This document shows positions 33,571 through 47,340 of a DNA stretch of 64,000 bases, one piece after another. Origin of the DNA: an uncultured Rhodospirillaceae bacterium. GTDB taxonomy: Bacteria > Pseudomonadota > Alphaproteobacteria > MPNO01 > UBA2964. Each line of letters opens with the position of its first letter. The stretch's first letter is position 1. The stretch covers positions 14,739 through 78,738 of the forward strand of contig CAZCKO010000001.1 of NCBI GenBank assembly GCA_964499275.1. Direction: 5' to 3'. A program made the translations under genes and the position numbers. A model generated the notes under the pieces. The model did no database searches. It was given only the letters and a program-made list of their open reading frames with translations, and was not told the DNA's origin.

Positions 33571-34524
33571 TTACCCACCTTGTATTTTCTTATGGAGCAA
33601 TGTTTCTCCCATACCTTCGCCAAGGCTCCATTCCGCAAAATTTTCTGGGGTTGATTCCCATTCACGTGGTTCCCAATTATCATCGACTACATCAGAATCA
33701 AAATCATATTCTGCCGCTCCACCACATGGGTTTTTAAAGTACCAGAAATAACAGGAAGATATGGGATGACGACCTGGCCCAATCATGGTTTCCCAGCCTT
33801 TACGGGTCATATTATTTCCACCCCCGAAAAGCTCATGAATTGATCCAAGCTCAAACGCTAGATGATGGAAACCGCGTTGTCCTTTCCCTGGATCAAGCAA
33901 AAAAACGTTGTGATGGTTGTTAGCATCAGCACACCGAAAAAAATAACCGCGCCCTGGATAGGAATCCGTTAATTTAAAACCTAATCCATCAATATAAAAA
34001 TCTTTGTGCTTTTCCAGAGCGTCGGTCATAAAAACTATATGCGAGATCACTAAGGGTGACGCACAGCTATAAGCTGGCCCACGCTGATTAAGCCTATTGG
34101 CATTCCCCGGAACATTGATTTCGACTTCGGGCGCATTAGCTTGCGCACATTGTGTTGGTCTAAAAGCAATCCCAAAGCCCAATGGATCAACGCCGTGGAG
34201 TGTCCCGTCTTCGTCTATAATCACTCTTCCCTCAGCGGCCAGAATTGGTTCTAAAGCGTCGATGTCAGTGATTGAGTTTACGCCGAAGGTTACCTCCCGC
34301 ATTGTGGCAGTCTTATTTGGCCCAACGGGCGGTGGTAAATTAGGAGAATTTGGGGGAACTATCTCAATTTCCGCTCCATTTTGAGCAGAAAATACCGCCT
34401 GGTTATCTTTAACGTTTTTTAAAACGAGACCAAAATCTTTCCAGAACTTACATGCACCGTCCAGATCTTCAACGCCATATGTTACTCTCTCAATACCGGT
34501 ATGGTGCACCCTATACTCTCCCAA
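33571..34524 (-). CDS. Two-domain VOC-family extradiol ring-cleavage dioxygenase (catechol 2,3-dioxygenase-like)
   Basis: 317 aa. Duplicated glyoxalase-fold modules. HHLAFE metal-ligand motif in the C-terminal module. Confidence 0.7.
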   Translation of the reverse strand: MGEYRVHHTGIERVTYGVEDLDGACKFWKDFGLVLKNVKDNQAVFSAQNGAEIEIVPPNSPNLPPPVGPNKTATMREVTFGVNSITDIDALEPILAAEGRVIIDEDGTLHGVDPLGFGIAFRPTQCAQANAPEVEINVPGNANRLNQRGPAYSCASPLVISHIVFMTDALEKHKDFYIDGLGFKLTDSYPGRGYFFRCADANNHHNVFLLDPGKGQRGFHHLAFELGSIHELFGGGNNMTRKGWETMIGPGRHPISSCYFWYFKNPCGGAAEYDFDSDVVDDNWEPREWESTPENFAEWSLGEGMGETLLHKKIQGG

Positions 34525-34588
34525 TCAATTATAGTTTTTATATTTCTTATCTATTTTTTTGGAATGCCTTTAACAATTATTTTGGAAA

Positions 34589-35440
34589 TCACGGATTTGC
34601 AATAGTATCCACACCGGCCAGCTCGTCGCCCGGATTAACAATAAATGCCTCTCCACGAGAGAAAAAATCTCGTATAAGCGCGACAAACCTATCCGGTTGG
34701 TCAACCTCGATATTGTGTCCTGCATCGTATACATAAAGGAGCTTGGCTCTCGGGATCTCCCGCATCAGAAGCTGTCCACTTTCTGGTGGCATCATACCAT
34801 CCTTAGTTCCCTGCATGATAAGTGTCTGGCATTTTATGTTCTCAAGGTTTGAGACTAATGTTTCATCGAGCCCTATCGACTGATGATAATAGTTAGCCCA
34901 TTTACGACTTTCTGAAAGTTGCTTAGATGTTTTCTCACCTTCCGGAATACGCTCTGGATGGGCAAACATACGAGCTTGCATTTCCTCTGGGTTATCTGCC
35001 GGCCTATAGGGAATGTTTTTAGGCCGGAAGCCTGAGGGACATTGTGGAACCAAAAAACCTACCTTGTCTGCATGACGTACCGTAAACCACACTGATAGAA
35101 AACCCCCAAAAGATTGGCCAATAACATCGACTTTCTCGCCAATAACCTCATCCACAAAATCCGCTGCCAAATCAGCAAGGGCCGGCATGGTATCAATTCC
35201 ATCATGGGGCTTTGTGTTTTCAAAACCAGGAGCTACAAACATATAAATTCGGTAATTTTCAGCTAATTCATCTAATGCATAAGTAAACCTGATACCTCCA
35301 GCACTATGAAAATATAATATTGGCGGTCCATTGCCGGCGGCATAATAGGTCACGGGACCAGAAGAAAGATCGGCAATACATTTTTTAAAGACTCCGCCGG
35401 CCGGCCCTTCAATAATCATTTTGCTCCTTCCTTCTCCCAA
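34589..35440 (-). CDS. Alpha/beta hydrolase (meta-cleavage-product C–C hydrolase-like)
   Basis: GQSFGG nucleophile elbow. C-terminal DAGHNIEVDQPD His motif. Confidence 0.7.
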   Translation of the reverse strand: MGEGRSKMIIEGPAGGVFKKCIADLSSGPVTYYAAGNGPPILYFHSAGGIRFTYALDELAENYRIYMFVAPGFENTKPHDGIDTMPALADLAADFVDEVIGEKVDVIGQSFGGFLSVWFTVRHADKVGFLVPQCPSGFRPKNIPYRPADNPEEMQARMFAHPERIPEGEKTSKQLSESRKWANYYHQSIGLDETLVSNLENIKCQTLIMQGTKDGMMPPESGQLLMREIPRAKLLYVYDAGHNIEVDQPDRFVALIRDFFSRGEAFIVNPGDELAGVDTIANP

Positions 35441-35462
35441 GTGGTCCCGTTACCTCTTTCCT

Positions 35463-36509
35463 TTACTTCTTTTTCTTCTTTTTACCACGCAGGACTGAAC
35501 GGAATTTCTTACCCAATCGCGCTTCATTCTTCATCCGCCAATCATAGGGCACGTCGATTACTTTCTTACCCTGTACGTATTTATACATATCACCCGACTT
35601 AGTACTGATAAGAGAATAGCCCCTAACATCATGGATAGTCTTTTGGCCGGGCTGTGATACTACCCAATAGCCCCAAAGTTTAGCTATATTTGGAGATTTA
35701 GAGTCTTTTACAATATAGGCACCCCTAGCAGCTAAGATTACCATATCCATATCAGGATGTTTAACTGGTGCGCCTTTGCGGATTTCGGCCCAGGCATCTG
35801 TACCCAAACCTATGGCATATTCGCCCGCTATAATTCTAGAACGTACGTCAGGGTAACGCGGTAAGGTCTTAATCTTTTGTTTTTTGAGTAGCGCCTGCAA
35901 ATACTGCTCAGCCTTCTTTTCCCCAAATGCATAAGAATAATAGATCCAAGGCGACGGTGAGCGTGGCATCGCCAACTTACCTTTCCATTTAGGTTTTAGT
36001 AAATCACTGTAACTCTTAGGTGCATCAGCCGACTTTACTAATTTGGTATTAATGGTCACCATGGTAAGGTAACTGTCATGAGTTTTGATGCCATACTCCC
36101 CCTGCATCAAGCTTTTAGATAATCCAAATTCCTTGGACCAATTAAATTTCACTATTGCATTATTTTTAATCAAATAACGGGGGCTGGAAGTCCAAAATAG
36201 GTCAAGGCCTGTAGGTACATTATTCTTAAGGGCTCGAACAACCTCAACACGCTTACGGGTATGACGGCCTCCAACCTGATTCAGTTTAATTTTGGTACCA
36301 TAAAATGAGTTGAACCCGTCATTCATCATCTTAACTTGCCGAGGATTCATTGTAGTGCCAAAGACTGTAGCTTCACCTTCCTTCACGGCAGCTGGAACCA
36401 ATTTTTTTACCGAGTTGGGAAGTTCAGCCGCAACTGCAAAGGTTACTGTGCTGGTTAGAAGGGTTAACCCTCCTAAAACGGTAGATATTTTGATATTAAT
36501 ATTCTTCAT
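35463..36509 (-). CDS. ABC transporter substrate-binding protein, Fe3+/thiamine/polyamine (type II PBP) family, with a C-terminal poly-Lys tail
   Basis: Signal peptide. FbpA/PotD-like fold. Ends ...RGKKKKKK. Confidence 0.65.
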   Translation of the reverse strand: MKNINIKISTVLGGLTLLTSTVTFAVAAELPNSVKKLVPAAVKEGEATVFGTTMNPRQVKMMNDGFNSFYGTKIKLNQVGGRHTRKRVEVVRALKNNVPTGLDLFWTSSPRYLIKNNAIVKFNWSKEFGLSKSLMQGEYGIKTHDSYLTMVTINTKLVKSADAPKSYSDLLKPKWKGKLAMPRSPSPWIYYSYAFGEKKAEQYLQALLKKQKIKTLPRYPDVRSRIIAGEYAIGLGTDAWAEIRKGAPVKHPDMDMVILAARGAYIVKDSKSPNIAKLWGYWVVSQPGQKTIHDVRGYSLISTKSGDMYKYVQGKKVIDVPYDWRMKNEARLGKKFRSVLRGKKKKKK

Positions 36510-36570
36510 CTTTTTCCTCCTGTTTCATAAAATTTGCCATTTCCAGACCCGGTCTCTCGCCAGGCTTAAC

Positions 36571-38361
36571 TTATTCTCCTAAACCATGCCTTTGTTTTCG
36601 GGTGGAACCGATTAGGGTGATAGCTGAGGACCCAATATCAGAGAGCCATTGGCGAGTAGAGCGACGTCGCCTAACGTCCACGCCTCTTATCTCCTGCATT
36701 CCGGTAATTCGTCTTGCAAAAAGAGCAAGAAGAACCAAAACAAAAATCATATAAATTGCTACCGCAGCCGCTGCATTTTGTTCTCCATTTGTTTGTAGGT
36801 TAAAAATTAGCGTAGCAACGACCTCTGAATTTCCTGTGTTCATCACCAGCGGTAGCGTAAGATCACGTGCTGCCAACATTCCTACCATTAATGCCGAATA
36901 GAAGATAGCAGGTGCCATGAGGGGCAAAAAAATTCGGCGAAAAGTGTCCAGCTTTGAAACTCCAGATACATAGGCAGCTTCGTCGAGTTCAAACTGAATT
37001 TGTAACGACGTTGCATTCATAGTTCGTGTACAATAGGCCAACATTCGTGTGCCCATGGCTATGGCAACGAGCCAAATGGTTCCGAACAATGGGAGCCAAT
37101 GATAAATAGCGATCCCCATAAACTGAAAAGCGACACCAGTAACAATTGTGGGAACTGCCGGTGCAAGAAAAACAATACTGTCCGCCCAATGTGCGGCTTT
37201 GTGTCGGCTGCGTGTGACCAACCATGTAATACTGGTAGCCAAACTAGATGCGATAATGACCGAACCCGCCATTAAAATTAGAGTGTTTTTAAGTGGTTCG
37301 CCTATCCAGTCAAGGGCGTCATAAAAACTGTTAAGATTGACCGAACTTAGTGCCTGAATTGACGGTGGCTGGAAAAAGGGTACCAACGCGACCCAAATGA
37401 TGGTGATAACTGGAATAATGATACTGGCAAGAAGCCACACCCCTACACAGGCATAAGCCGCCCATTTCCAGCGCCCGAGTGGCTGAGGTGCTGAAGCGCG
37501 AACCTTCCCACCCACTACAGCATACTTTTTAGCCTGCTTTAAAAACCGCGCATAAAATGCGATAGCGCCACTACAAATTGCGAAGAGAACAACACCCGCA
37601 GCACCTGCAAATCCGAGGTTAGGCGGGCCATCGGATTCAGCGATTGCGTCATAAATCCAAAGTACCAAGACATCTCCGGGCATTCCGATAATTGCAACGA
37701 AATCAAACATCTCAACCCCGATTACAAAATAGAAAATCGAAACAGCGACCATACTGGGTCCGAGGAGAGGAAGTACAATACGTCCAACGGTATGCGACTT
37801 CGAAACACCACTTACCCATGCTGCTTCCTCAAGTGAAGCATCAAGATTACGAAAGGCTGGGAGCATCATGAAAACACCCCCGGGCACGAGAACAATACCC
37901 TGTAAAAAACATATCCAGGATAGCTGATAGACATCAAATAGTGCCCCACCGCTAAATTTGGTCATATCGAAAAGCTGATTAACCAAACCTGATGTTGGAT
38001 TGAACAACCAAACATAAGACATTGCTGTAATAAATCCAGGGATAGCGAGTTTGGCAGTAAGCAAAGAAAACAGTCCGGTCCTGTAACGAAAATCGGTGCG
38101 GGCCAACAACCAAGCGAATGGAAAGGAAAAGACAAACATCCAGAATACGGTACCCACGCCTAACACTATAGTTCGACCGGTCACCCCACCTAATGTATCC
38201 TGAGAAAATAATTCGAAGTAATTTGCCAGCGAATATCGATCAATATCGCCTTCTTCACTGAAACTGGTGACAACATTACCAAAAACAGAAATGCACACCA
38301 TGAACAACCCCACCCCAGAGAGTAGGAAGACCCATCCTATACCGTAGGATCTATTCAACAC
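36571..38361 (-). CDS. Fused two-domain ABC transporter permease (FbpB/ThiP-like, about 12 TM)
   Basis: Duplicated permease domains with EAA-like motifs. Start placed at the GTG at 38361 (GGGAGG RBS, 11-nt overlap with the upstream ATPase). The ORF track runs to 38466. Confidence 0.7.
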   Translation of the reverse strand: MLNRSYGIGWVFLLSGVGLFMVCISVFGNVVTSFSEEGDIDRYSLANYFELFSQDTLGGVTGRTIVLGVGTVFWMFVFSFPFAWLLARTDFRYRTGLFSLLTAKLAIPGFITAMSYVWLFNPTSGLVNQLFDMTKFSGGALFDVYQLSWICFLQGIVLVPGGVFMMLPAFRNLDASLEEAAWVSGVSKSHTVGRIVLPLLGPSMVAVSIFYFVIGVEMFDFVAIIGMPGDVLVLWIYDAIAESDGPPNLGFAGAAGVVLFAICSGAIAFYARFLKQAKKYAVVGGKVRASAPQPLGRWKWAAYACVGVWLLASIIIPVITIIWVALVPFFQPPSIQALSSVNLNSFYDALDWIGEPLKNTLILMAGSVIIASSLATSITWLVTRSRHKAAHWADSIVFLAPAVPTIVTGVAFQFMGIAIYHWLPLFGTIWLVAIAMGTRMLAYCTRTMNATSLQIQFELDEAAYVSGVSKLDTFRRIFLPLMAPAIFYSALMVGMLAARDLTLPLVMNTGNSEVVATLIFNLQTNGEQNAAAAVAIYMIFVLVLLALFARRITGMQEIRGVDVRRRRSTRQWLSDIGSSAITLIGSTRKQRHGLGE

Positions 38362-39520
38362 GGGATGCACCCTCCCCCGCAAGGCCACCTTCCAAATCCT
38401 CAGACAACAAATTTTGAGCGGGTGTGACAACAACAGTATGATCGGGTGGAAAACATAAACTAACATTATCCCCCTTTTTTACAAAAAACTTATGATGACA
38501 TTTGACACGAATTGATTCTTTACAGGCTTCAACGGTGTGAACAAATCCTTCACCCACATAATCAGAGGCGACAACAATGCCTTTTATGACGTTATTGGAT
38601 TCTTTGCTCTCTACACTATTGATCTGGATATCCTCAGGCCGAACACCGAGGATACATGAATCACCAACTACAAAACCAGCCCCACTCGTTGCATGAGCTT
38701 GTAAATCTCCAAATGGCGTACCAACCTCTACATGGCGACCGTTACTCCCTTTAAACTTTGCCGAAAATATATTCATGTCACCTAAAAACCTAGCGACAAA
38801 CTCATTTTCTGGATGATGGTAGATAGTTTGCGGATCGTCTAATTGAACTATTTTTCCTTGCTCCATTACCGCAATTCGATCTCCTGTCTCAAGTGCCTCC
38901 GCCTGATTATGAGTGACGTGGACTGTTGTAAGGCGCAATTCGTGCATCAGATCACGCATTTGTGCACGCAACCTAATTTGTAATTTGAGGTCCAGGTTGC
39001 TAAGTGGTTCGTCCATCAACAGGACCCTAGGCCGCAGCGCAAGAGCGCGGGCAAGCGCCACGCGCTGCTGTTGACCTCCACTCAACGTTATAACCGGTCG
39101 GCGGGCCATCTCACCCATACCAAGCATTTCGAGGACTTCACCTACGCGCACCCGAATTTCATCGTCTGCCATCTTGGTTCGACCGCGACGTAAGGGAAAA
39201 GCTATATTCTCATATACGTCCATGTGAGGCCAAATTGCATAGGACTGGAAAACCATAGCGATGGGTCTACGATCTGGCGGTATGAAAAGTCCTGCTGCGG
39301 AGTCGAAGACTGGTTCTCCATCAATATGAATTGACCCCAACGACGGTCGCTCCAACCCGGCGATTGAACGTAACATGGTTGTTTTCCCGCAACCGGAAGG
39401 CCCAAGTAGCACAAAGAATTCGCCTTCCTCTATTTCTAGATTTATACCACGCAAGGCATGCACAACGCTGTCCCGCAAATCAAACTTTGCTTCCAACTCT
39501 TGTGTTTTCAAAATAGCCAT
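38351..39520 (-). CDS. ABC transporter ATP-binding protein with a C-terminal TOBE domain (FbpC/PotA-like)
   Basis: GPSGCGKTT, LSGGQQQRVALARAL, LLMDEPLSNLD. C-terminal TOBE-like region. Confidence 0.85.
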   Translation of the reverse strand: MAILKTQELEAKFDLRDSVVHALRGINLEIEEGEFFVLLGPSGCGKTTMLRSIAGLERPSLGSIHIDGEPVFDSAAGLFIPPDRRPIAMVFQSYAIWPHMDVYENIAFPLRRGRTKMADDEIRVRVGEVLEMLGMGEMARRPVITLSGGQQQRVALARALALRPRVLLMDEPLSNLDLKLQIRLRAQMRDLMHELRLTTVHVTHNQAEALETGDRIAVMEQGKIVQLDDPQTIYHHPENEFVARFLGDMNIFSAKFKGSNGRHVEVGTPFGDLQAHATSGAGFVVGDSCILGVRPEDIQINSVESKESNNVIKGIVVASDYVGEGFVHTVEACKESIRVKCHHKFFVKKGDNVSLCFPPDHTVVVTPAQNLLSEDLEGGLAGEGASRVE

Positions 39521-39541
39521 ACGACGTATCTCTCTAATCTG

Positions 39542-40555
39542 CTATAGTGGTCGCGCGAAGACCCCTTGTTTTTGCAGCCGTTCAATTGTTGCTTTAGTAG
39601 TTTCTTTGGTTGCTGGCCCGGTATTGGTCTCCATGAAGGTCTGTTTAGCGAACTCTTGACCAAATAACTCTGATTTTATTTGCGCCGGGTAGTTCATAAA
39701 AACCTCGGTGCGTCGTTTTCGTAACCTCTCCACATCGATCGTGGAGACCAGAACTGATTCGCCTGCCCCATCGATTTCCGAATCCACATTACCGAGATAA
39801 TTGATAACTTTCGAACAACCACGCGATGCCTGTGCAGCAATATACTTACTCTTAATAGCCCCAGCGTTTGCCGAGGCAAGATAGACAAAATTTTCATAGG
39901 CCCGCGACCGACGAGCCTGATCCAAAGTTTGAACCATCGGCCCGTTCCATTCAGCGGTAGGATGCAAAAGAATTTCCGCGCCATGAAAGGTAAGGACGCG
40001 GGAGAGCTCAAAAAAATTCATGTCGTGTTCGACCATCAAGGCTAATCGCCCATATGGCGTATCAAGGACAGGGAATAATGAGCCCTCCCCATAGCGTTCA
40101 ATATAATCGCTATATACATCAGCAGGAGAGGCGTTAGGAATAAGTCCCTCAACATTATGTTCATGAATTTTTCGATATCGAAGTTCTACATCCCCAGAAG
40201 GGCCTATAATAAAACCGGTTGTGAACCAAATTTCTGGCCATTCAGGGTCCTGTTCAAATGCAGCAGTTGCGATATAAACCTGCTGTTCTTTGGCAAAATC
40301 TCCAATTCGTGACGTTTCAGGTCCCGGAATTTGTATGCAGATCTCCTTCCAATCAGCCTCTCGACGGGTGTGGTTAAACCCTTGCAGCCACGCTTCCGGA
40401 AATACTATGACTTTTGCTTCATCACGAAGGATGGCGGTTTCGGCAATATTTAAACCTCGTTCGATATTCCGGCCAATAACAGAATCTCGATCTACTGGAT
40501 CGTCGATAACCTCGATGGCTGCCTGAATGCACGCTAATTGATATTGTTTTGTCAT
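39542..40555 (-). CDS. Carbon–nitrogen hydrolase (AmiE/aliphatic-amidase-like) paralog lacking the catalytic cysteine (Cys→Glu)
   Basis: Conserved Glu (VFPEAW) and Lys (RYRKIH) of the E-K-C triad are present. The position aligned to ALINCYD of the neighbouring paralog reads ALMVEHD. Confidence 0.7.
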   Translation of the reverse strand: MTKQYQLACIQAAIEVIDDPVDRDSVIGRNIERGLNIAETAILRDEAKVIVFPEAWLQGFNHTRREADWKEICIQIPGPETSRIGDFAKEQQVYIATAAFEQDPEWPEIWFTTGFIIGPSGDVELRYRKIHEHNVEGLIPNASPADVYSDYIERYGEGSLFPVLDTPYGRLALMVEHDMNFFELSRVLTFHGAEILLHPTAEWNGPMVQTLDQARRSRAYENFVYLASANAGAIKSKYIAAQASRGCSKVINYLGNVDSEIDGAGESVLVSTIDVERLRKRRTEVFMNYPAQIKSELFGQEFAKQTFMETNTGPATKETTKATIERLQKQGVFARPL

Positions 40556-40557
40556 GA

Positions 40558-41715
40558 TTAAGTCAGCGCCGTATTCTGTTTTTCTGGCTCCCGATCGTTC
40601 CCTAATTCCTCTGGCGGAGCATAAACACCATCACGCAAATAACGCGCAATAACTGCTTCGGTATTCTGGCGAGCTTCAGATTTATGGGCTATGGGATTTT
40701 CTAACCAATGATTAATGCCTGTGGCCTGATGTTTTTTATATTCTTTCGCATAAATCTCGGTCCGACTTTGGGCCAATACATTACCACGTATCTCAGTCCG
40801 TTTCTCACGAAGTGCTTTAAGATCGACAGGACCAATCGCCAAGGCTTCCCCAGGGTTAGGAGATTGACCAACTATTTTACCGTTAAAATCAACAATTTCT
40901 GATCCACCATGCGAACGATGCAGCGGTGCTATTTCACCACTACGACGCTGCTGGAAATTAAGTCCGGGGGAGTCAGCAAATACATCGCCTGAAACTTGTG
41001 CAACATACCCCCCATGATTTGATGAGATCACATACATACAATTTTCAAAAGCACGTGTACGTCTACTCATCTCCCATGAATCACGATGTGGCCCATAGGG
41101 CTCGCCTGTACAATGCAACAGGATTTCTGCTCCATATTGCGCAAATGTCCGCGGCATTTCTGGGAAATTTATGTCATAGCAATTTATCAGTGCGAGCCTA
41201 CCGATCTCTGTATCTACTACCGGAAATACAGCATTCTCACCCCCCTCTTGTTTAACATAAAGATCGTAAAGTCCGGTCGGAGTAGAATAGGTCGCATGTC
41301 CCTGAACATCAGCACCGTTCACCTTACGATAACGAAGTTCCAAGTCGCCGGTGGGGCCGAATAAATAAGCAGAGTTAAACCACCGACCAGGATATGCCGG
41401 ATCATATTCCATCGTCCCACCCGCTACATAAGCCTTATTTTGCTTAGCAAAGTCAGCTAAGGGTTCTAACTCTGGTCCGGGCACCTGGATTGCAATTTCA
41501 CACCATTCCTCAACGGAACGTACATGCTCAACACCGGTTAGGGAAAATTCTGGTAAAACGTAAAGCTTAGCCTGTCCCCACCGGCAACTAACATAATCCA
41601 TCAGCGATAGGTAACGATTAATATTTTCGCGAACTATGGCTTCACGCCACTCTGGCTCCCGCACATGCCGGATGATAGTCTGGACCGCAACAGCTGTATA
41701 TTTTTCGACCATCAA
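40558..41715 (-). CDS. Carbon–nitrogen hydrolase (AmiE/aliphatic-amidase-like), catalytic triad intact
   Basis: LPEFSLTG (Glu), RYRKVN (Lys), LALINCYDINFPE (Cys). A roughly 60-aa C-terminal extension. Confidence 0.75.
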   Translation of the reverse strand: MMVEKYTAVAVQTIIRHVREPEWREAIVRENINRYLSLMDYVSCRWGQAKLYVLPEFSLTGVEHVRSVEEWCEIAIQVPGPELEPLADFAKQNKAYVAGGTMEYDPAYPGRWFNSAYLFGPTGDLELRYRKVNGADVQGHATYSTPTGLYDLYVKQEGGENAVFPVVDTEIGRLALINCYDINFPEMPRTFAQYGAEILLHCTGEPYGPHRDSWEMSRRTRAFENCMYVISSNHGGYVAQVSGDVFADSPGLNFQQRRSGEIAPLHRSHGGSEIVDFNGKIVGQSPNPGEALAIGPVDLKALREKRTEIRGNVLAQSRTEIYAKEYKKHQATGINHWLENPIAHKSEARQNTEAVIARYLRDGVYAPPEELGNDREPEKQNTALT

Positions 41716-41759
41716 TCAAGCCCCCCCTGCTTTCTGGTTAAATCGAATCTTTTTTGTTT

Positions 41760-42917
41760 TTATTCAGCAGCAGCAATACCTTGCTCTTCGCCAAGGTGTC
41801 GTACCGCTGGTATTACTTCATCACGTAATAGTCCTAGTGTTTGGTTTACTTTTTCATCTGGGATATTCCCAATTTTTATACTGAGATTAGTTACGCCGTG
41901 ACCAAACTCTTGATATAGCCGAGTAATCTGTTCAACAGCCATCTCTGGTGTTCCACACATTACTAATCCGCGTTCCATGCGTTCTTCTAATGTCAGCTGT
42001 TTATGTCGTTGTAGCTTTGCTGTCTGGCGCTCTGCATCCTGTTCGTCTTTAAAATACCGAGTTTTTTGTACGACTAATTTTTGTGCGGTCCGAATACCCC
42101 CACCGAGTACATTGAAAAAATAATCATAGCCCCCTTCAAGCGTCTTCATCGCCTCTTTTTTCGTCGGCGCAATTGAACAGTTCATCGCTAAAATTAAATT
42201 TCGGGAAGTTGGTTCCCAACCGTGCTTACGGGAATGCTCCTTGTAGACATCAATAGACCTATGGGCGGATTCGTAATTTTGAATACGCAAGACACCCATA
42301 GTGGCTTTATGTTCTGCGGCGAGTTTGGCAGATGCATCACTACTTGCAGACATTACAATTTCCGGATGAGGCTTTTGCACAGGTTTAGGCCAAATCGAAA
42401 CGGCACGAAATTGATAATGTTCCCCCTCCCAACCAAAGGGCTCGGGCTCGGTCCACGCTTTCTTAATTAATTCGATTGCCTCATTCATTCGCCCATAGGA
42501 TTCGCTCGGGGGCACATTATAAGCAACGTATTCATGAGGTATTCCGCGCATAAAGCCGGCTATTAGCCGGCCTTCCGAGATCATATCCAACATTGCGTAC
42601 TCTTCTGCAACTCTTAGCGGATTGACAATGGGTACAATATTCCCGGATTGGAGGATCATCGCTTTCTCTGTTCGCTCCGCAACACATGCCCCTATTAAAT
42701 TTGGATTTGGCATCAACCCGTAAGGACTCATATGGTGTTCATTATTTCCTATCCAGTCAAAACCACACTCCTCAGCGAAAACCTTATTGTCTATGCCGTT
42801 CCTAAAAATCTTTTGTCCTAATTCGACATCAAATTGTTTGTTGGGAACCGGCCAATCCTGATCCGCAGTTTCGACCCCCGTATACGGCATATGGTGCGTA
42901 TAGGAGAACTTCATCAT
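41760..42917 (-). CDS. LLM-class (bacterial luciferase-like) flavin-dependent monooxygenase
   Basis: 385-aa TIM-barrel LLM family (FDWIGNNEHH...). No flavin reductase in the window. Confidence 0.75.
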   Translation of the reverse strand: MMKFSYTHHMPYTGVETADQDWPVPNKQFDVELGQKIFRNGIDNKVFAEECGFDWIGNNEHHMSPYGLMPNPNLIGACVAERTEKAMILQSGNIVPIVNPLRVAEEYAMLDMISEGRLIAGFMRGIPHEYVAYNVPPSESYGRMNEAIELIKKAWTEPEPFGWEGEHYQFRAVSIWPKPVQKPHPEIVMSASSDASAKLAAEHKATMGVLRIQNYESAHRSIDVYKEHSRKHGWEPTSRNLILAMNCSIAPTKKEAMKTLEGGYDYFFNVLGGGIRTAQKLVVQKTRYFKDEQDAERQTAKLQRHKQLTLEERMERGLVMCGTPEMAVEQITRLYQEFGHGVTNLSIKIGNIPDEKVNQTLGLLRDEVIPAVRHLGEEQGIAAAE

Positions 42918-43057
42918 AGCCTCCGCTTCAGGGTAGCTTTACTACCCGCCTATTAATTCATCATAACAAAATCAACCTGGCGGGACGCACCGCCAAATGC
43001 CCTTTAATTTTGTGCGATTATTTACTTAACGCAATGGCTAATTACGTTATACCTGTT

Positions 43058-43073
43058 ATAGTTATATACTTAT
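43058..43073 (+). promoter_or_regulatory. Quasi-palindromic ATAGTTATATACTTAT (T-N11-A-type) candidate LysR box in the divergent promoter region
   Basis: Imperfect dyad (12/16) within a TTATA-repeat tract 30–45 nt upstream of the LysR ATG. Confidence 0.3.
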
Positions 43074-43102
43074 ATGTTAAAGACAAAGATGATATAAAGA
43101 AA

Positions 43103-44020
43103 ATGTACTCCATAACTTTACGACAGCTAGAAATATTCCGGACCGTCGTTGATGCTGGCTCGTTTAGTGCCGCCGCAGCTGCACTAAAAATTTCACAGCC
43201 CTCAGTTAGTATGCATATTAGGGCACTGGAGACACATTTACGGGAATTGGTTTTTGATCGTCATAAGGGTCAGTCTCCTGTTATTACTGATATCGGTCGC
43301 CGGGTTTATAACCACGCTGAGGAGATCCTTGCACAATCCAAACAAACGCTCTTAGATATTAAATCCCTCAAAACAGTTAAAGACAACGTGTTGTCATTTG
43401 CTGCCCATCGTTTTATTGGGAACCATCTTTTATCCAAACCATTAGCGAATTTTGCAAAACAAAATCCTGGAATCGAAATTATTGCTAATATTGGAGCACT
43501 TGATCAGGCAGTTGAAATGATCCGGAAGCGGGATGTAGACCTTGGTCTTTACCTAGCGAATGGACAAACAAAAGAGGTTATTTCAAAAATTTTAGGGCAT
43601 CAGAAGCTGGCCTTCATTGCTTCCGTCGATCACCCTTTAGCTTCTGGCCAAAACTTGCGTTATCGTGACCTTGCTGAGCACCCCTTCATTGGACCGGTAA
43701 GGGGCACGGATTATGCCAAATTGCTTCAAGGGGTTTTTTATGAGGCGGGTTTTACTAAACACAATACCATAACGCAGTCTCAAAATACTTTGATCCGACG
43801 CGAATTAATTTTATCAGGTGTTGGGTTTTCTTGTATTCTTCAATCTGGCTGGACTGATGATCTCAATATTGGACAATTAGTAGTTCTAGATATGGCTGAA
43901 AATACGCTCTCACTCGAAGTAAGGGTAGGTTCATTATTAGATCGAGAAATTAGCGCCGCATCCCAACAGTTTCTGGAGTATCTAAACCAACTTAGCATCG
44001 AAGGCTATTTCGATGGTTAA
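43103..44020 (+). CDS. LysR-family transcriptional regulator
   Basis: N-terminal HTH (LRQLEIFRTVVDAGSFSAAAAALKISQPSVSMHIRALE) and C-terminal substrate-binding domain. Start at the ATG at 43103. The ORF track starts 93 nt upstream. Confidence 0.85.
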   Translation: MYSITLRQLEIFRTVVDAGSFSAAAAALKISQPSVSMHIRALETHLRELVFDRHKGQSPVITDIGRRVYNHAEEILAQSKQTLLDIKSLKTVKDNVLSFAAHRFIGNHLLSKPLANFAKQNPGIEIIANIGALDQAVEMIRKRDVDLGLYLANGQTKEVISKILGHQKLAFIASVDHPLASGQNLRYRDLAEHPFIGPVRGTDYAKLLQGVFYEAGFTKHNTITQSQNTLIRRELILSGVGFSCILQSGWTDDLNIGQLVVLDMAENTLSLEVRVGSLLDREISAASQQFLEYLNQLSIEGYFDG

Positions 44021-44026
44021 GCATGT

Positions 44027-44806
44027 TCACATACCACAACGTTTTAAGCGAGATGACCAATCTTTTGCATAACTCCAATCTCTTACGTTACGTGCAAAAA
44101 TTTTTTGCTTATTAATTTGTTGAACACAACACAAAGCAAGACACAACATACAAGACAACACTAAAGGACCTGCATCGTTGGCAACATCTGCGATAGGCCT
44201 GAGGGTTGGCATGCCAGTGCCTAACAGTACGATTGCATCATGTTCTGGACCACGAAGGTGTGTTAATGCCTCAGACGCATTTTGAGCTCGCAAACTATAA
44301 ATGGGATGAAAATCACTTTGCTCGTTAAAAGCACTGACCACGTGACCAACCTCAAAACCATGGCTGGACCAGTATTCAGCACTTGCCTCCGTCAATTTCG
44401 GGGGATAGCAGGAAACAAATCCGATTTTCCGCGCCCCAATTGCATTGAGTGCTTCCACTACAGCTAGCCCCGTCGTTATAGCGGGAACGCCAGCACGATT
44501 ACTCCAACGTTCAACTAATTCTGCCTCACGGGCACGACCGACAAGGTATGACGCGCCCGTGCAACCGACTGCAATCGCATCAATAGGGGCATTAGCAAAC
44601 TGCCCGAGAGTGCTTTCCAACCCTTCATAATAATCAATTAATCGGGCTTCTATAGTATCTTCCGAACTAGTTAACCGGGCTGTTATAGTGCTGATGCCCC
44701 GGGGCATCAAAATTTGCATCTCTGGCTCGACTGTTGTGTTGGCTTGTGGCACCAGAACTCCGACCAAACCGCGGGGTGCATATTCCAAAGACAAGCAAAC
44801 CTCCAT
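44027..44806 (-). CDS. Arylmalonate decarboxylase / maleate isomerase / Asp-Glu-hydantoin racemase superfamily protein
   Basis: N-terminal GVLVPQANTTVEPE. First catalytic-site motif AVGCTGAS has Cys. Second pseudo-symmetric motif reads LLGTGMP (Gly, not Cys). Confidence 0.6.
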   Translation of the reverse strand: MEVCLSLEYAPRGLVGVLVPQANTTVEPEMQILMPRGISTITARLTSSEDTIEARLIDYYEGLESTLGQFANAPIDAIAVGCTGASYLVGRAREAELVERWSNRAGVPAITTGLAVVEALNAIGARKIGFVSCYPPKLTEASAEYWSSHGFEVGHVVSAFNEQSDFHPIYSLRAQNASEALTHLRGPEHDAIVLLGTGMPTLRPIADVANDAGPLVLSCMLCLALCCVQQINKQKIFARNVRDWSYAKDWSSRLKRCGM

Positions 44807-44884: not shown

Positions 44885-46096
44885 TTACAGTAGATCCGGA
44901 AACATATTTGTATCCGTCTCATGAGAATTACCGTCTTTGAACACCCTAGCAGGCACCCAAATTTTTGACGGCTTTATCTCTTCACCCTCCGAATCAGACA
45001 TTTTATGCCTGCTGGAATGCGGTTCCAAAATAGTCATATCTGCAACACTGCCTTTGGCCAAAGTACCTATTTCATTCTCTGAGTTTAGAATAACCGCGGG
45101 CGAGTAGGTTAAACACCTAACGGCCTCATTTAATGGAAGCCCTAACTCTATCAGCCTGTTAAATGCACCAGCGAGGCTATAGTCCAATTTTGAAAAATCA
45201 TGATACGCATTGAAGTCCCCATGCAGATCACTGCTAATCGTATGTGGCGGGTACCCCTTTTCTAACATCATACGAGCTATTCTATACGAAAAATTAATTC
45301 CGTATCCGACATCAAATTTGATTCCGCGGTCATATGCGGCGCTTACACAATCGGGAACGGCATTTGCTCCACCAACCACGCCATCTGGCATATTGCTGTA
45401 AACATGCGCTACGACATCACCAGGTCGCAAATATTGTAGCGTTTTTTCAACTACTGACCTGGGCTCAGGACGCTTCGCATCATCCACCGGGAATAATTCC
45501 CCTGTGTGAACATAAAGGGGTATATCACAGCGCTCTCCGGCCTCTATCGCCTGTTGAAGTACAACCGTATCCCAATGGGAAAGGCCACCAGATTCTCCGT
45601 GGGATTTAATCCCGCAAATCATATCAGGATGACGTTCATACGCATTTACGATTTCTTCAATGCGAGTCATTTGTGGCCCATGCAGGGTAGTCCCCTCCAT
45701 GCCGCCCATTAACGCCCCGGCAAGGTTCGCCGAAACGAAACACCTTACATCGGTAATCGCCTCTTTGCGGATATAGGCCTCAAACCCACCCGCTGTCCAG
45801 GGACCAGAGCTTCCTTGATCAACTACTGTTGTTGCTCCGGAATTAATCCCTGCCTTGTCGGCCGAAATACCAAAATTGGTTACCCATTCATAAACATGGA
45901 CATGCAAGTCTATAAATCCTGGGCAAACAACTTCACCAACAAAATCTATTTGTTCCTTGGATTGTAATGTTGAATCCAATTCCGTACTGAAATACTCAAT
46001 CCTGCCGTTTTTTATACCAATTATCGCCGGTCCAAAATAATCAATAGATGGATCACAAACCGTTTGAGCAGTTATCACCGTATCAAAAATTGTCAT
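44885..46096 (-). CDS. Dihydroorotase-like metal-dependent amidohydrolase (COG3964-type)
   Basis: PGFIDLHVHV metal-binding motif. Start at the ATG at 46096, forming an ATGA overlap with the upstream M20 gene. Confidence 0.65.
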   Translation of the reverse strand: MTIFDTVITAQTVCDPSIDYFGPAIIGIKNGRIEYFSTELDSTLQSKEQIDFVGEVVCPGFIDLHVHVYEWVTNFGISADKAGINSGATTVVDQGSSGPWTAGGFEAYIRKEAITDVRCFVSANLAGALMGGMEGTTLHGPQMTRIEEIVNAYERHPDMICGIKSHGESGGLSHWDTVVLQQAIEAGERCDIPLYVHTGELFPVDDAKRPEPRSVVEKTLQYLRPGDVVAHVYSNMPDGVVGGANAVPDCVSAAYDRGIKFDVGYGINFSYRIARMMLEKGYPPHTISSDLHGDFNAYHDFSKLDYSLAGAFNRLIELGLPLNEAVRCLTYSPAVILNSENEIGTLAKGSVADMTILEPHSSRHKMSDSEGEEIKPSKIWVPARVFKDGNSHETDTNMFPDLL

Positions 46097-47340
46097 AACA
46101 CTTCTTGCATGTTGGCCAACTGGACTAACGTGGTGCACAGCACCTTGGTACCTGCCAAAATGTCACTTTGATTGGTATATTCATTGATGTTGTGACTGAC
46201 CCCATCACATGACGGTACAAAGATCATACCCGAAGGACAAAAATAACTCATTTGACGCGCATCATGACCAGCACCTGAGAAAATACGTCGGCAGGGTAGA
46301 TCAAGATGTTTCGCCTCCTCTTCAATTGCCGAGATAACCTTCTCATTAAATTTAATGGTATCCGCCTCCGCAATACACCAAACATCTGATGAGCATTTCG
46401 ATACAGTTTGGGCCACTAAGTCTCTGACTTTTTTTTCACAATCCAATAGAACTTCGGAATCCGGGTGTCGTAAATCTATAGAAAAAACAACTTCGCTAGC
46501 AACAACTGAAGGCACATTTGGTTCTATTGTTAGCATACCGACTGTAAAACGAATGTCTTCAATAGTTGAAAACACTGTGTACATTTTTTCTATTGTTCTT
46601 GACGCCTCTTCAATCGCATCTTTTCTTAGATCGTAGGGTGTCGTCCCGGCATGGGCTTCATCTCCAATAATCTTCACCCGCATACGCCTGACCCCCTGTA
46701 TTCCGGTAACGGCACCAATGGGGATGCATTCTTTTTCTAGAATGGGACCTTGCTCAATATGTGCCTCTATAAAACAGTACACATCTCTTCCGAATGGAAC
46801 ATTTTTGATGCCCGGTAAATGATCTTGAAGTTTCAGGAGTTCATCCCCGACTGATACCCCTGTTTTATCCTTCACAGCCTTTATCTCTGATATTGGTTTG
46901 ACACCAACATATGCCTCGGATCCCATCATGCCAGGAGCAAACCGGGACCCCTCTTCGTTCATCCAGGCCACTATTTCGATACTTCTTCTGTGTTCTGTCC
47001 TTGAATTGATAATTGCCCGGGCCGCTTCTAGGCCTGCAAGGATACCAAAAGCACCATCAAACTTCCCACCGGTCGGCTGAGTATCAAGGTGCGAACCAGT
47101 CATAACTACCGGCAGATCGGGCTCATTCCCCTCAATGCGAAAAAAAAGGTTACCCACATCGTCGGCAGTTATTTTAAGCCCATATGCTTCTGCCCATGAT
47201 ATACAAAGATCACGTGCCGCAAATTCTTCCGAGGTAAGGGCTTGCCGATTAACCCCCCCGCCTTCAATGCCGCCAATTTCAGCTAGCTCCATCAAATTCG
47301 ACCAGAGCCTTTCAGATTCAATATATTCCGCAAGAGCCAT
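46093..47340 (-). CDS. M20-family Zn-hydrolase of the N-carbamoyl-L-amino-acid hydrolase / allantoate amidohydrolase / beta-ureidopropionase group
   Basis: 415 aa. GSHLDTQPTGGKFDGAFGILAGLEA signature of the AmaB/AllC family. Confidence 0.75.
   Translation of the reverse strand: MALAEYIESERLWSNLMELAEIGGIEGGGVNRQALTSEEFAARDLCISWAEAYGLKITADDVGNLFFRIEGNEPDLPVVMTGSHLDTQPTGGKFDGAFGILAGLEAARAIINSRTEHRRSIEIVAWMNEEGSRFAPGMMGSEAYVGVKPISEIKAVKDKTGVSVGDELLKLQDHLPGIKNVPFGRDVYCFIEAHIEQGPILEKECIPIGAVTGIQGVRRMRVKIIGDEAHAGTTPYDLRKDAIEEASRTIEKMYTVFSTIEDIRFTVGMLTIEPNVPSVVASEVVFSIDLRHPDSEVLLDCEKKVRDLVAQTVSKCSSDVWCIAEADTIKFNEKVISAIEEEAKHLDLPCRRIFSGAGHDARQMSYFCPSGMIFVPSCDGVSHNINEYTNQSDILAGTKVLCTTLVQLANMQEVL

Follow-up and report, generated by a model that had tools for sequence, protein, structure and literature searches.

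To our knowledge, all characterised enzymes of the clade that unites maleate isomerase (MI) and arylmalonate decarboxylase (AMDase) carry either two cysteines, as the isomerases do, or a cysteine on the C-side of the active site only, as does AMDase. In MI, the N-side cysteine acts as the nucleophile, since the C194S mutant (PDB 2xed, according to the entry title) carries a covalent succinyl-cysteine. For AMDase, engineered G74C/C188G variants, in which the cysteine has changed sides, are active and (S)-selective (bioRxiv 10.64898/2026.01.14.699310). Here, a gene of this clade was analyzed within a 64,000-nucleotide stretch of DNA from an uncultured Rhodospirillaceae bacterium (contig CAZCKO010000001.1, positions 14,739 to 78,738 of the forward strand; this whole stretch is termed the window). 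Its product belongs to a large, uncharacterised subfamily that represents a third arrangement, in which a cysteine is present on the N-side only, Gly-Thr-Gly forms a shortened second loop and an invariant loop with His and Tyr is new. The protein is tentatively viewed, with slightly less than even confidence, as a functional, cofactor-independent, single-thiol isomerase or tautomerase of the MI/AMDase clade, a reading that sets it apart from two-base racemases as well as from arylmalonate decarboxylases.

A profile alignment to AMDase (B. bronchiseptica sequence, identical to PDB 3dtv_A) and an alignment to MI were used to assign the active-site residues. Both alignments confirmed what the initial annotation had read from the sequence, namely a Cys in the first catalytic motif and a Gly in the second. 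Cys82 (codon 44561-44563) takes the position of AMDase Gly74 and of MI Cys76, and Gly196 (codon 44219-44221) that of AMDase Cys188. The gene and the segments of its product that are relevant for this comparison are as follows.

44027..44806, minus strand: MI/AMDase-family gene (intact open reading frame of 259 amino acids; Pfam PF17645 match; AlphaFold2 model with a pLDDT of 92)
44726..44749, minus strand: PQANTTVE motif, residues 20-27 (Asn23 equals N. farcinica MI Asn14, Glu27 equals MI Glu18)
44546..44572, minus strand: first (N-side) catalytic motif AVGCTGASY, residues 79-87 (AVGCTGAS covers 79-86; Tyr87 is invariant)
44402..44410, minus strand: C-Y-P, residues 133-135 (Tyr134 equals AMDase Tyr126 and MI Tyr133, an oxyanion-hole or carboxylate-binding Tyr)
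44297..44311, minus strand: family-specific loop FHPIY, residues 166-170 (region of MI Asn163 and AMDase Val156/Met159)
44201..44227, minus strand: second (C-side) motif LLGTGMPTL, residues 194-202, without Cys (LLGTGMP covers 194-200; loop one residue shorter than in MI)
44150..44155, minus strand: Ser218-Cys219 at the start of a Cys-rich C-terminal helix (S-C-M-L-C; Cys219 is conserved in the near family only)

Further equivalences to AMDase connect T83 with T75, G84 with S76, T197 with G189 and G198 with G190. The N-side set of MI (Cys76, Asn14 and Tyr133) is present as C82, N23 and Y134, and MI also has an equivalent of Arg44. The second catalytic Cys of MI (Cys194/Cys200) and its carboxylate-binding Asn163 were not matched in the alignment. 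The former (NfMI C194, PpIso Cys200) falls into a one-residue gap between G196 and T197, which agrees with the remark in a preprint on AMDase ancestral reconstruction that MI has one extra residue before its second Cys (bioRxiv 10.64898/2026.01.14.699310). Asn163 aligns with either F166 or S164, and the nearby His167 and Tyr170 are candidates for a second catalytic or binding group.

Judged by its conservation, the Cys82/Gly-Thr-Gly pattern is a family trait under selection and neither a product of chance nor a one-off, because C82 is found in 119 and G196-T197-G198 in all 121 sequences of a near set that consists of the query and its 120 closest homologues (51-95% identical). When 1.84 billion cluster representatives were searched exhaustively, 103 matches fell below 1e-30 and 703 below 1e-10. 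In a wide set of approximately 120 full-length representatives of 50%-identity clusters, which are 30-50% identical to the query, the second motif reads G-T-G-[MLAV]-P-[TS]-L nearly throughout, and a Cys at the second site occurred in none of the approximately 240 homologues inspected in the near and wide sets. A scan of species-representative genomes yielded 473 confirmed loci. The best 80 of these, to which all counts for genome homologues refer, stem mostly from Rhodospirillales/Hyphomicrobiales metagenome-assembled genomes and additionally from isolates (e.g. Salinarimonas, Roseomonas, Variovorax). Invariant across these 80 loci are residues N23, E27, R44, R55, T83, Y87, Y134, H167, Y170 and G196-T197-G198. 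Clustered at 50% identity, the subfamily forms at least about 150 groups, and it is mainly found in Alphaproteobacteria; the notion of a natural rarity therefore had to be given up for a pattern that defines a large family.

Position 82 is occupied by Cys in 69, by Thr in 10 and by Ser in one of the 80 genome homologues. The Thr/Ser82 loci (L020, L039, L045, L051, L053, L059, L064, L065, L071, L080 and L089) keep the other invariant residues, and all 11 retain Cys219. In eight of them (L039, L045, L053, L059, L064, L065, L071 and L080) the first motif reads ALGTTGASY and a FAD monooxygenase neighbor is retained. The family-specific loop also varies over larger distances. In the wide set, position 167 is His in 56 and Arg in 43 sequences, position 170 is Tyr in 113 of 121, and the FHPIY loop reads T-R-x-I-Y in the distant half of the family.

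Membership in the AMDase/maleate isomerase family, which had been proposed from the motifs, was verified by a match to Pfam PF17645 ('Amdase') of 52 bits (cut-off 25.9) and by the two-domain Asp/Glu racemase fold. The general Pfam model Asp_Glu_race remained just below its threshold (29.3 vs 31). The protein was not found to belong to the two-Cys Asp/Glu/hydantoin/allantoin racemases (PF01177), which combine a match above threshold with a Cys on both faces; it carries a thiol at the N-side catalytic position only, and the earlier statement that it is no canonical two-Cys racemase holds. The AMDase equivalog NF052327 (arylmal_decarb) is the best NCBIfam match, yet its 53.4 bits stay far below the cut-off of 225, and the EutA equivalog TIGR02990 reached 46.9 bits with a cut-off of 318. 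An AlphaFold2 model built from 39 homologues (pLDDT 92, pTM 0.91) was searched against the PDB with Foldseek, which placed maleate isomerases at the top (TM 0.77-0.83), followed by 4ix1 and AMDase. The fold comparison gave the following values.

2xec, N. farcinica maleate isomerase: 26.0
4ix1, function unassigned: 23.6
2dgd, ST0656, function unassigned: 22.0
2vlb, AMDase: 21.9
5lfd and 2eq5, allantoin and hydantoin racemases: 15-16.5

A profile of the subfamily likewise scored 74 bits on P. putida MI vs 39 bits on AMDase. The protein is nearer to maleate isomerase than to AMDase, in sequence and in fold. Automated pipelines annotate proteins of the subfamily as 'maleate isomerase', a label that is probably wrong because the second Cys of all characterised MIs is absent. 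Literature searches on PF17645, on MI in clusters with luciferase-like or FAD monooxygenases and on Cys76/Cys194 returned nothing on the subfamily, and papers on EutA and OpaE provided background only.

The constant partner of these genes is a flavin monooxygenase of either the luciferase-like or the group-A FAD class. Synteny of a luciferase-like flavin monooxygenase (LLM) with the MI-like gene was detected in loci L007, L008, L010, L011, L012, L014 and L037. When the neighbors in the distant loci were clustered de novo, 64 of 80 loci proved to have a group-A FAD monooxygenase (PF01494) no more than 6 kb away, often directly adjacent. Other recurrent neighbors are TctC, LeuD-like proteins, a PrpB-like lyase, NMT1-type ABC transporters and an isochorismatase-type cysteine hydrolase. 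These clusters look like catabolic pathways for polar carboxylated or N-containing compounds.

The subfamily retains the carboxylate/enediolate-binding framework of the clade (Asn23, Thr83, Tyr134 and Arg44). Specific to it are the replacement of the C-side Cys loop by the shorter Gly-Thr-Gly loop, the new His/Tyr loop FHPIY and Arg55. In the proposed function, the substrate would be a di- or tricarboxylate-type compound or an enoate, produced as an intermediate by the partner flavin monooxygenase, and the protein would stabilise an aci-carboxylate (enediolate) intermediate, a property common to the whole fold. With a single thiol, catalysis would proceed from one face only. Two routes can be envisaged, in both of which His167 or Tyr170 may assist. 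Cys82 could add to a cis-enoate in a Michael addition that is followed by rotation and elimination and results in cis-trans isomerisation, like Cys76 of MI, or it could be the sole base in a 1,3-proton shift that moves a double bond or interconverts tautomers. Ring-opening flavin monooxygenases such as RutA, MHPCO, TgnAB and PyrA typically give Z-configured enoates or enamides, and a role for an isomerase downstream of them is speculative.

Several points weigh against the proposed isomerase. The assignment is a prediction from homology and gene neighborhood, and the pocket positions of His167, Tyr170 and Cys219 are predictions from alignment and strand topology. Once the second Cys is removed, MI mutants do not proceed beyond the covalent intermediate (2xed), so a single-Cys isomerase would need another way to finish its turnover. 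The main caveat is provided by the Thr82/Ser82 lineages: together with the approximately 14% of the wide representatives in which position 82 is occupied by I, V, T, N or M, they show that thiol chemistry at this position is not universal in the family, although members without Cys82 may have diverged in function. Finally, the clades differ in whether an LLM or a FAD monooxygenase is the partner, and pathway and substrate may differ with them.

The genomic neighborhood bears on the first alternative to be considered. The MI-like gene is the last gene of a minus-strand operon, in which it follows an NMT1-type ABC transporter, an aminotransferase, a short-chain dehydrogenase/reductase, an alpha/beta hydrolase, an M20 carbamoylase-type amidase and a COG3964-like amidohydrolase. 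On its other side, the following features are located.

43010..44020, plus strand: LysR-family regulator (Pfam), transcribed towards the MI-like gene and away from the monooxygenase operon
41760..42917, minus strand: luciferase-like flavin monooxygenase (Pfam PF00296), the partner in the nearest relatives
33571..41715, minus strand: rest of the conserved block, with two CN-hydrolase paralogues, an ABC transporter (ATPase, fused 600-aa permease, binding protein), an alpha/beta hydrolase and a two-domain VOC/glyoxalase-fold protein

Only the LLM block is conserved with the MI-like gene. The order of MI-like gene, LysR regulator and LLM recurs in L007, L010, L011, L012 and L013, and in L008 and L014 the MI-like gene lies directly upstream of the LLM gene. 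The block from LLM to VOC protein (33571-44806 with the MI-like gene) is conserved in the window, L007, L010, L011, L012 and L014, which represent marine Rhodospirillaceae-type genomes. The block has the appearance of a pathway, uncharacterised so far, for the breakdown of a polar N-containing compound. When the PDB was searched by sequence with the LLM, the CN hydrolase and the alpha/beta hydrolase, only generic family matches came up.

The operon on the other side, in which a COG3964-type amidohydrolase and an M20 amidase of the hydantoinase/carbamoylase family accompany the MI-like gene, resembles hyu clusters and could point to a racemase or epimerase with a non-Cys second base (His167, Tyr170 or Thr197). 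Such an enzyme would catalyze a 1,1-proton transfer at a carboxylate-bearing chiral center, and its substrate in the window could be a cyclic amide or an N-carbamoyl compound of the adjacent amidohydrolase or carbamoylase. His167 and Tyr170 are invariant in a loop of the C-domain and align near MI Asn163, and Cys/Thr pairs occur elsewhere in the superfamily, in E. coli YgeA-type enzymes. The linkage is nevertheless confined to the window. None of the 80 genome homologues is accompanied by relatives of the amidohydrolase, M20 amidase or first alpha/beta hydrolase genes (within 10 kb for amidohydrolase and M20 amidase), and in L007 the MI-like gene stands alone beside the LysR/LLM block. The reading as a hydantoin racemase, at which the neighboring genes had hinted, was consequently rejected as a conserved association. 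The Asp_Glu_race match also stays below its threshold (29.3 vs 31), and the solved racemases of this fold use two cysteines. Two-Cys members of the superfamily lose activity once either Cys is mutated, as was reported for OpaE, which needs both (PMC12661438), and a classical racemase is unlikely for this reason. A racemase with a non-Cys second base is unlikely too, while still deserving more credit than the alternatives discussed below.

The second alternative, a mirror-image decarboxylase of the AMDase type, would act on an alpha-substituted malonate or a similar activated acid, with Cys82 protonating the enediolate from the face that lies opposite to the one served by Cys188 in AMDase and thus giving a product of opposite configuration. 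Its appeal lies in the exact inversion of Cys and Gly at the equivalents of G74 and C188, in the activity and (S)-selectivity of the engineered G74C/C188G enzymes (bioRxiv 10.64898/2026.01.14.699310), in the partially kept dioxyanion hole (T83 equals T75, Y134 equals Y126) and in arylmal_decarb being the best NCBIfam match. The query was compared with the 12 criteria for true AMDases of Maimanakos et al. (PMC4996985, Table 4).

AMDase P14: P20 here, kept
AMDase P15: Q21 here, lost
AMDase T75: T83 here, kept
AMDase S76: G84 here, lost
AMDase Y126: Y134 here, kept
AMDase G189: T197 here, lost
AMDase L40: S47 here, lost (residues 40-48 of AMDase lie in a low-confidence part of the alignment)
AMDase V43: D50 here, lost (same low-confidence part)
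AMDase Y48: L56 here, lost (same low-confidence part)
AMDase V156 and M159: in a gap without alignable equivalent, lost
AMDase G74/C188: C82/G196 here, inverted
AMDase signature motifs LMGTSLSF and ILLSCGGL: AVGCTGAS and IVLLGTGM here, 3/8 identical each, lost

According to this residue comparison, most of the 12 criteria fail and the protein is not AMDase-like beyond the two swapped positions, at which it does resemble the G74C/C188G variants, as pointed out in the initial annotation. Within the dioxyanion hole of AMDase (Thr75, Ser76, Tyr126 and Gly189), Thr and Tyr are kept and the other two residues are replaced; a role of the backbone NH of residue 197 could persist despite the change from Gly189 to Thr. 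The large aromatic pocket with Pro14-Pro15 and the hydrophobic pocket (Leu40, Val43, Tyr48, Val156 and Met159) are not reproduced, and the invariant residues R44, S47 and R55 are found in this region, where the alignment is of low confidence. The hydrophobic pocket of AMDase destabilises the leaving carboxylate and thereby drives decarboxylation. R44, S47 and R55 would be predicted to hold a carboxylate, not to expel it, and such polar or charged residues in the region of the hydrophobic pocket make a decarboxylase of the AMDase type unlikely. With an NCBIfam score of 53 vs a cut-off of 225 and a sequence and fold closer to MI, the mirror-image decarboxylase is considered improbable. The initial interpretation is thus supported in part: a single N-side Cys and the absence of two-base racemase chemistry hold, and the mirror-image AMDase is weakly supported. 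A broader version, in which the family would be a natural set of one-thiol, N-side enzymes that approach the enediolate on the side not used by AMDase, either protonating it or adding to it, is given a slightly lower chance still. It would include natural decarboxylases or isomerases whose stereochemistry is inverted with respect to all known wild-type AMDases, recruited as dedicated partners of ring-opening or hydroxylating flavin monooxygenases.

It was also considered that the active site contains two thiols after all, with Cys219 supplying the second one, so that the near family would consist of conventional two-Cys isomerases or racemases with a relocated Cys. A second Cys from the Cys-rich C-terminal tail had been named at the outset as the finding that would overturn the one-cysteine reading. 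Cys219 is indeed a Cys in 73 of the 80 near homologues, and the residue pairs at positions 82 and 219 are CC in 62, TC in 10, CS in 7 and SC in one of them. No near homologue lacks a Cys at both positions, but approximately one would be expected by chance and the deficit is not significant. In the wide set (121 aligned), 85 sequences have Ser and only 19 have Cys at position 219, with the Gly-Thr-Gly loop still present in all of them, and MI and AMDase have Ala and Ser at this position, respectively. Cys222, Cys226 and Cys227 are weakly conserved in the near set. The AlphaFold2 model contains one four-stranded sheet with strands 13-20, 38-45, 77-80 and 215-218 and a second one with strands 109-111, 127-132, 152-158 and 191-194. 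This grouping is the one expected for the fold, whose C-terminal strand is known to come back to the N-domain. As strand 215-218 completes the N-domain sheet in the model, Cys219 should be a neighbor of the strand with Cys82, on the same side of the pocket. A relocated second thiol was thus judged unlikely, with conservation in the wider family speaking against it and the modeled topology appearing to do so as well.

Least credible, and given hardly any weight, is a non-catalytic ligand-binding protein or degenerate enzyme that has lost the racemase/isomerase chemistry: one canonical Cys is gone, both are gone in some relatives including PDB 4ix1, and there is a low-level fold likeness to periplasmic binding and LacI-type ligand-binding domains, but the pocket strictly keeps its polar residues across hundreds of sequences, the gene is consistently found in catabolic operons, and a DNA-binding or signal sequence is absent.

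No pseudogene signature was detected in the open reading frame; the identical protein was called on nine marine metagenome contigs, and the AlphaFold2 model has a pLDDT of 92. The true start codon is probably not the annotated ATG at 44806. A TTG at 44794 is preceded by GGAGG 5 nt upstream and gives a product of 255 amino acids with the N-terminus MSLEYAPRG. Most homologues have 255 amino acids and several begin with M-x-LEYAPRG, and the upstream GGAGG and the agreement in length and N-terminus make this TTG the probable start.

Further observations were made on genes around the MI-like gene and on its paralogues. The tandem CN-hydrolase paralogues of the LLM block (39542-40555 and 40558-41715, minus strand) are 34% identical, and the pair is kept in L007, L010 and L011. 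The first retains the nucleophile motif LALINCYD; the second reads LALMVEHD with the Glu and Lys positions kept, and, with Glu in place of the nucleophile Cys, probably acts as a partner subunit without catalysis of its own. Between the genes for the M20 amidase and the COG3964-like amidohydrolase (44885-47340, minus strand), stop and start share a few bases, a possible sign of translational coupling. The amidohydrolase was listed as an open reading frame of 417 amino acids with a GTG start and probably has 403 amino acids according to public gene calls. A tandem paralogue or heterodimer was considered on the basis of extra members of the BLAST cluster that lie upstream in many loci and rejected, as these proved to be Arg-rich shadow open reading frames in GC-rich genomes with one real paralogue among them. 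This genuine second family member is located in L046 (13065-14009, minus strand of the locus), approximately 3 kb from the main homologue. It has no Cys at either catalytic position (MGVAIEAF and QVGTNLA) and resembles the Cys-less PDB 4ix1.

With its predicted cofactor-free one-base catalysts, which are linked to pathways of flavin monooxygenases, the subfamily is a defined target for enzyme discovery. Biocatalysts with a stereochemistry that has so far been reached only by AMDase engineering might also find a natural starting point in it. Among the known systems, maleate cis-trans isomerase (EC 5.2.1.1; N. farcinica 2xec/2xed, P. putida S16 Iso 4fq5/4fq7, NicE) shares the two-domain fold, the P-x-x-N-x-T-x-E motif, the N-side Cys (C76 equals C82), the Tyr133/Tyr134 pair and an Arg44 equivalent. 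Unlike MI, the query lacks the second Cys (C194/C200), has a Gly-Thr-Gly loop that is one residue shorter and FHPIY in place of Asn163, and possesses the additional invariant residues Arg55, Tyr87, His167 and Tyr170, with an identity of only about 22%. Members of the subfamily usually have a flavin monooxygenase as their genomic partner, and no canonical nic-type cluster came to light. With AMDase (EC 4.1.1.76; B. bronchiseptica 3dtv/3ip8) the protein has PF17645, a one-thiol active site and the equivalents of Thr75 and Tyr126 in common. Its Cys and Gly are the inverse of those of the wild-type enzyme and the same as in the engineered (S)-selective G74C/C188G variants, whereas Arg and Ser replace the hydrophobic pocket, most criteria fail and the NCBIfam score is 53 vs 225. 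EutA (TIGR02990), a predicted hydroxyectoine epimerase, is also MI/AMDase-like and encoded in catabolic operons, and gave a weak family-level match (47 bits). The query differs from it in staying far under the cut-off of 318, and eutBCDE/ehu genes are absent nearby in the window; the function of EutA is itself only predicted (PMC5924519). Two structural-genomics proteins without assigned function, both approximately 20% identical to the query, show other distributions of the cysteines. PDB 4ix1 (OPAG_01669, Rhodococcus opacus) also lacks the canonical pair but has no Cys at either site, and ST0656 (2dgd) shares an I-Y-x-L loop with the query and has a Cys at the second site only. As an analogy from enzymes of another, non-homologous fold, PrpF, 3-methylitaconate isomerase and PhzF (diaminopimelate epimerase fold) illustrate how the loss of one of two pseudo-symmetric catalytic residues can go along with a change from racemisation to double-bond or proton-shift isomerisation.

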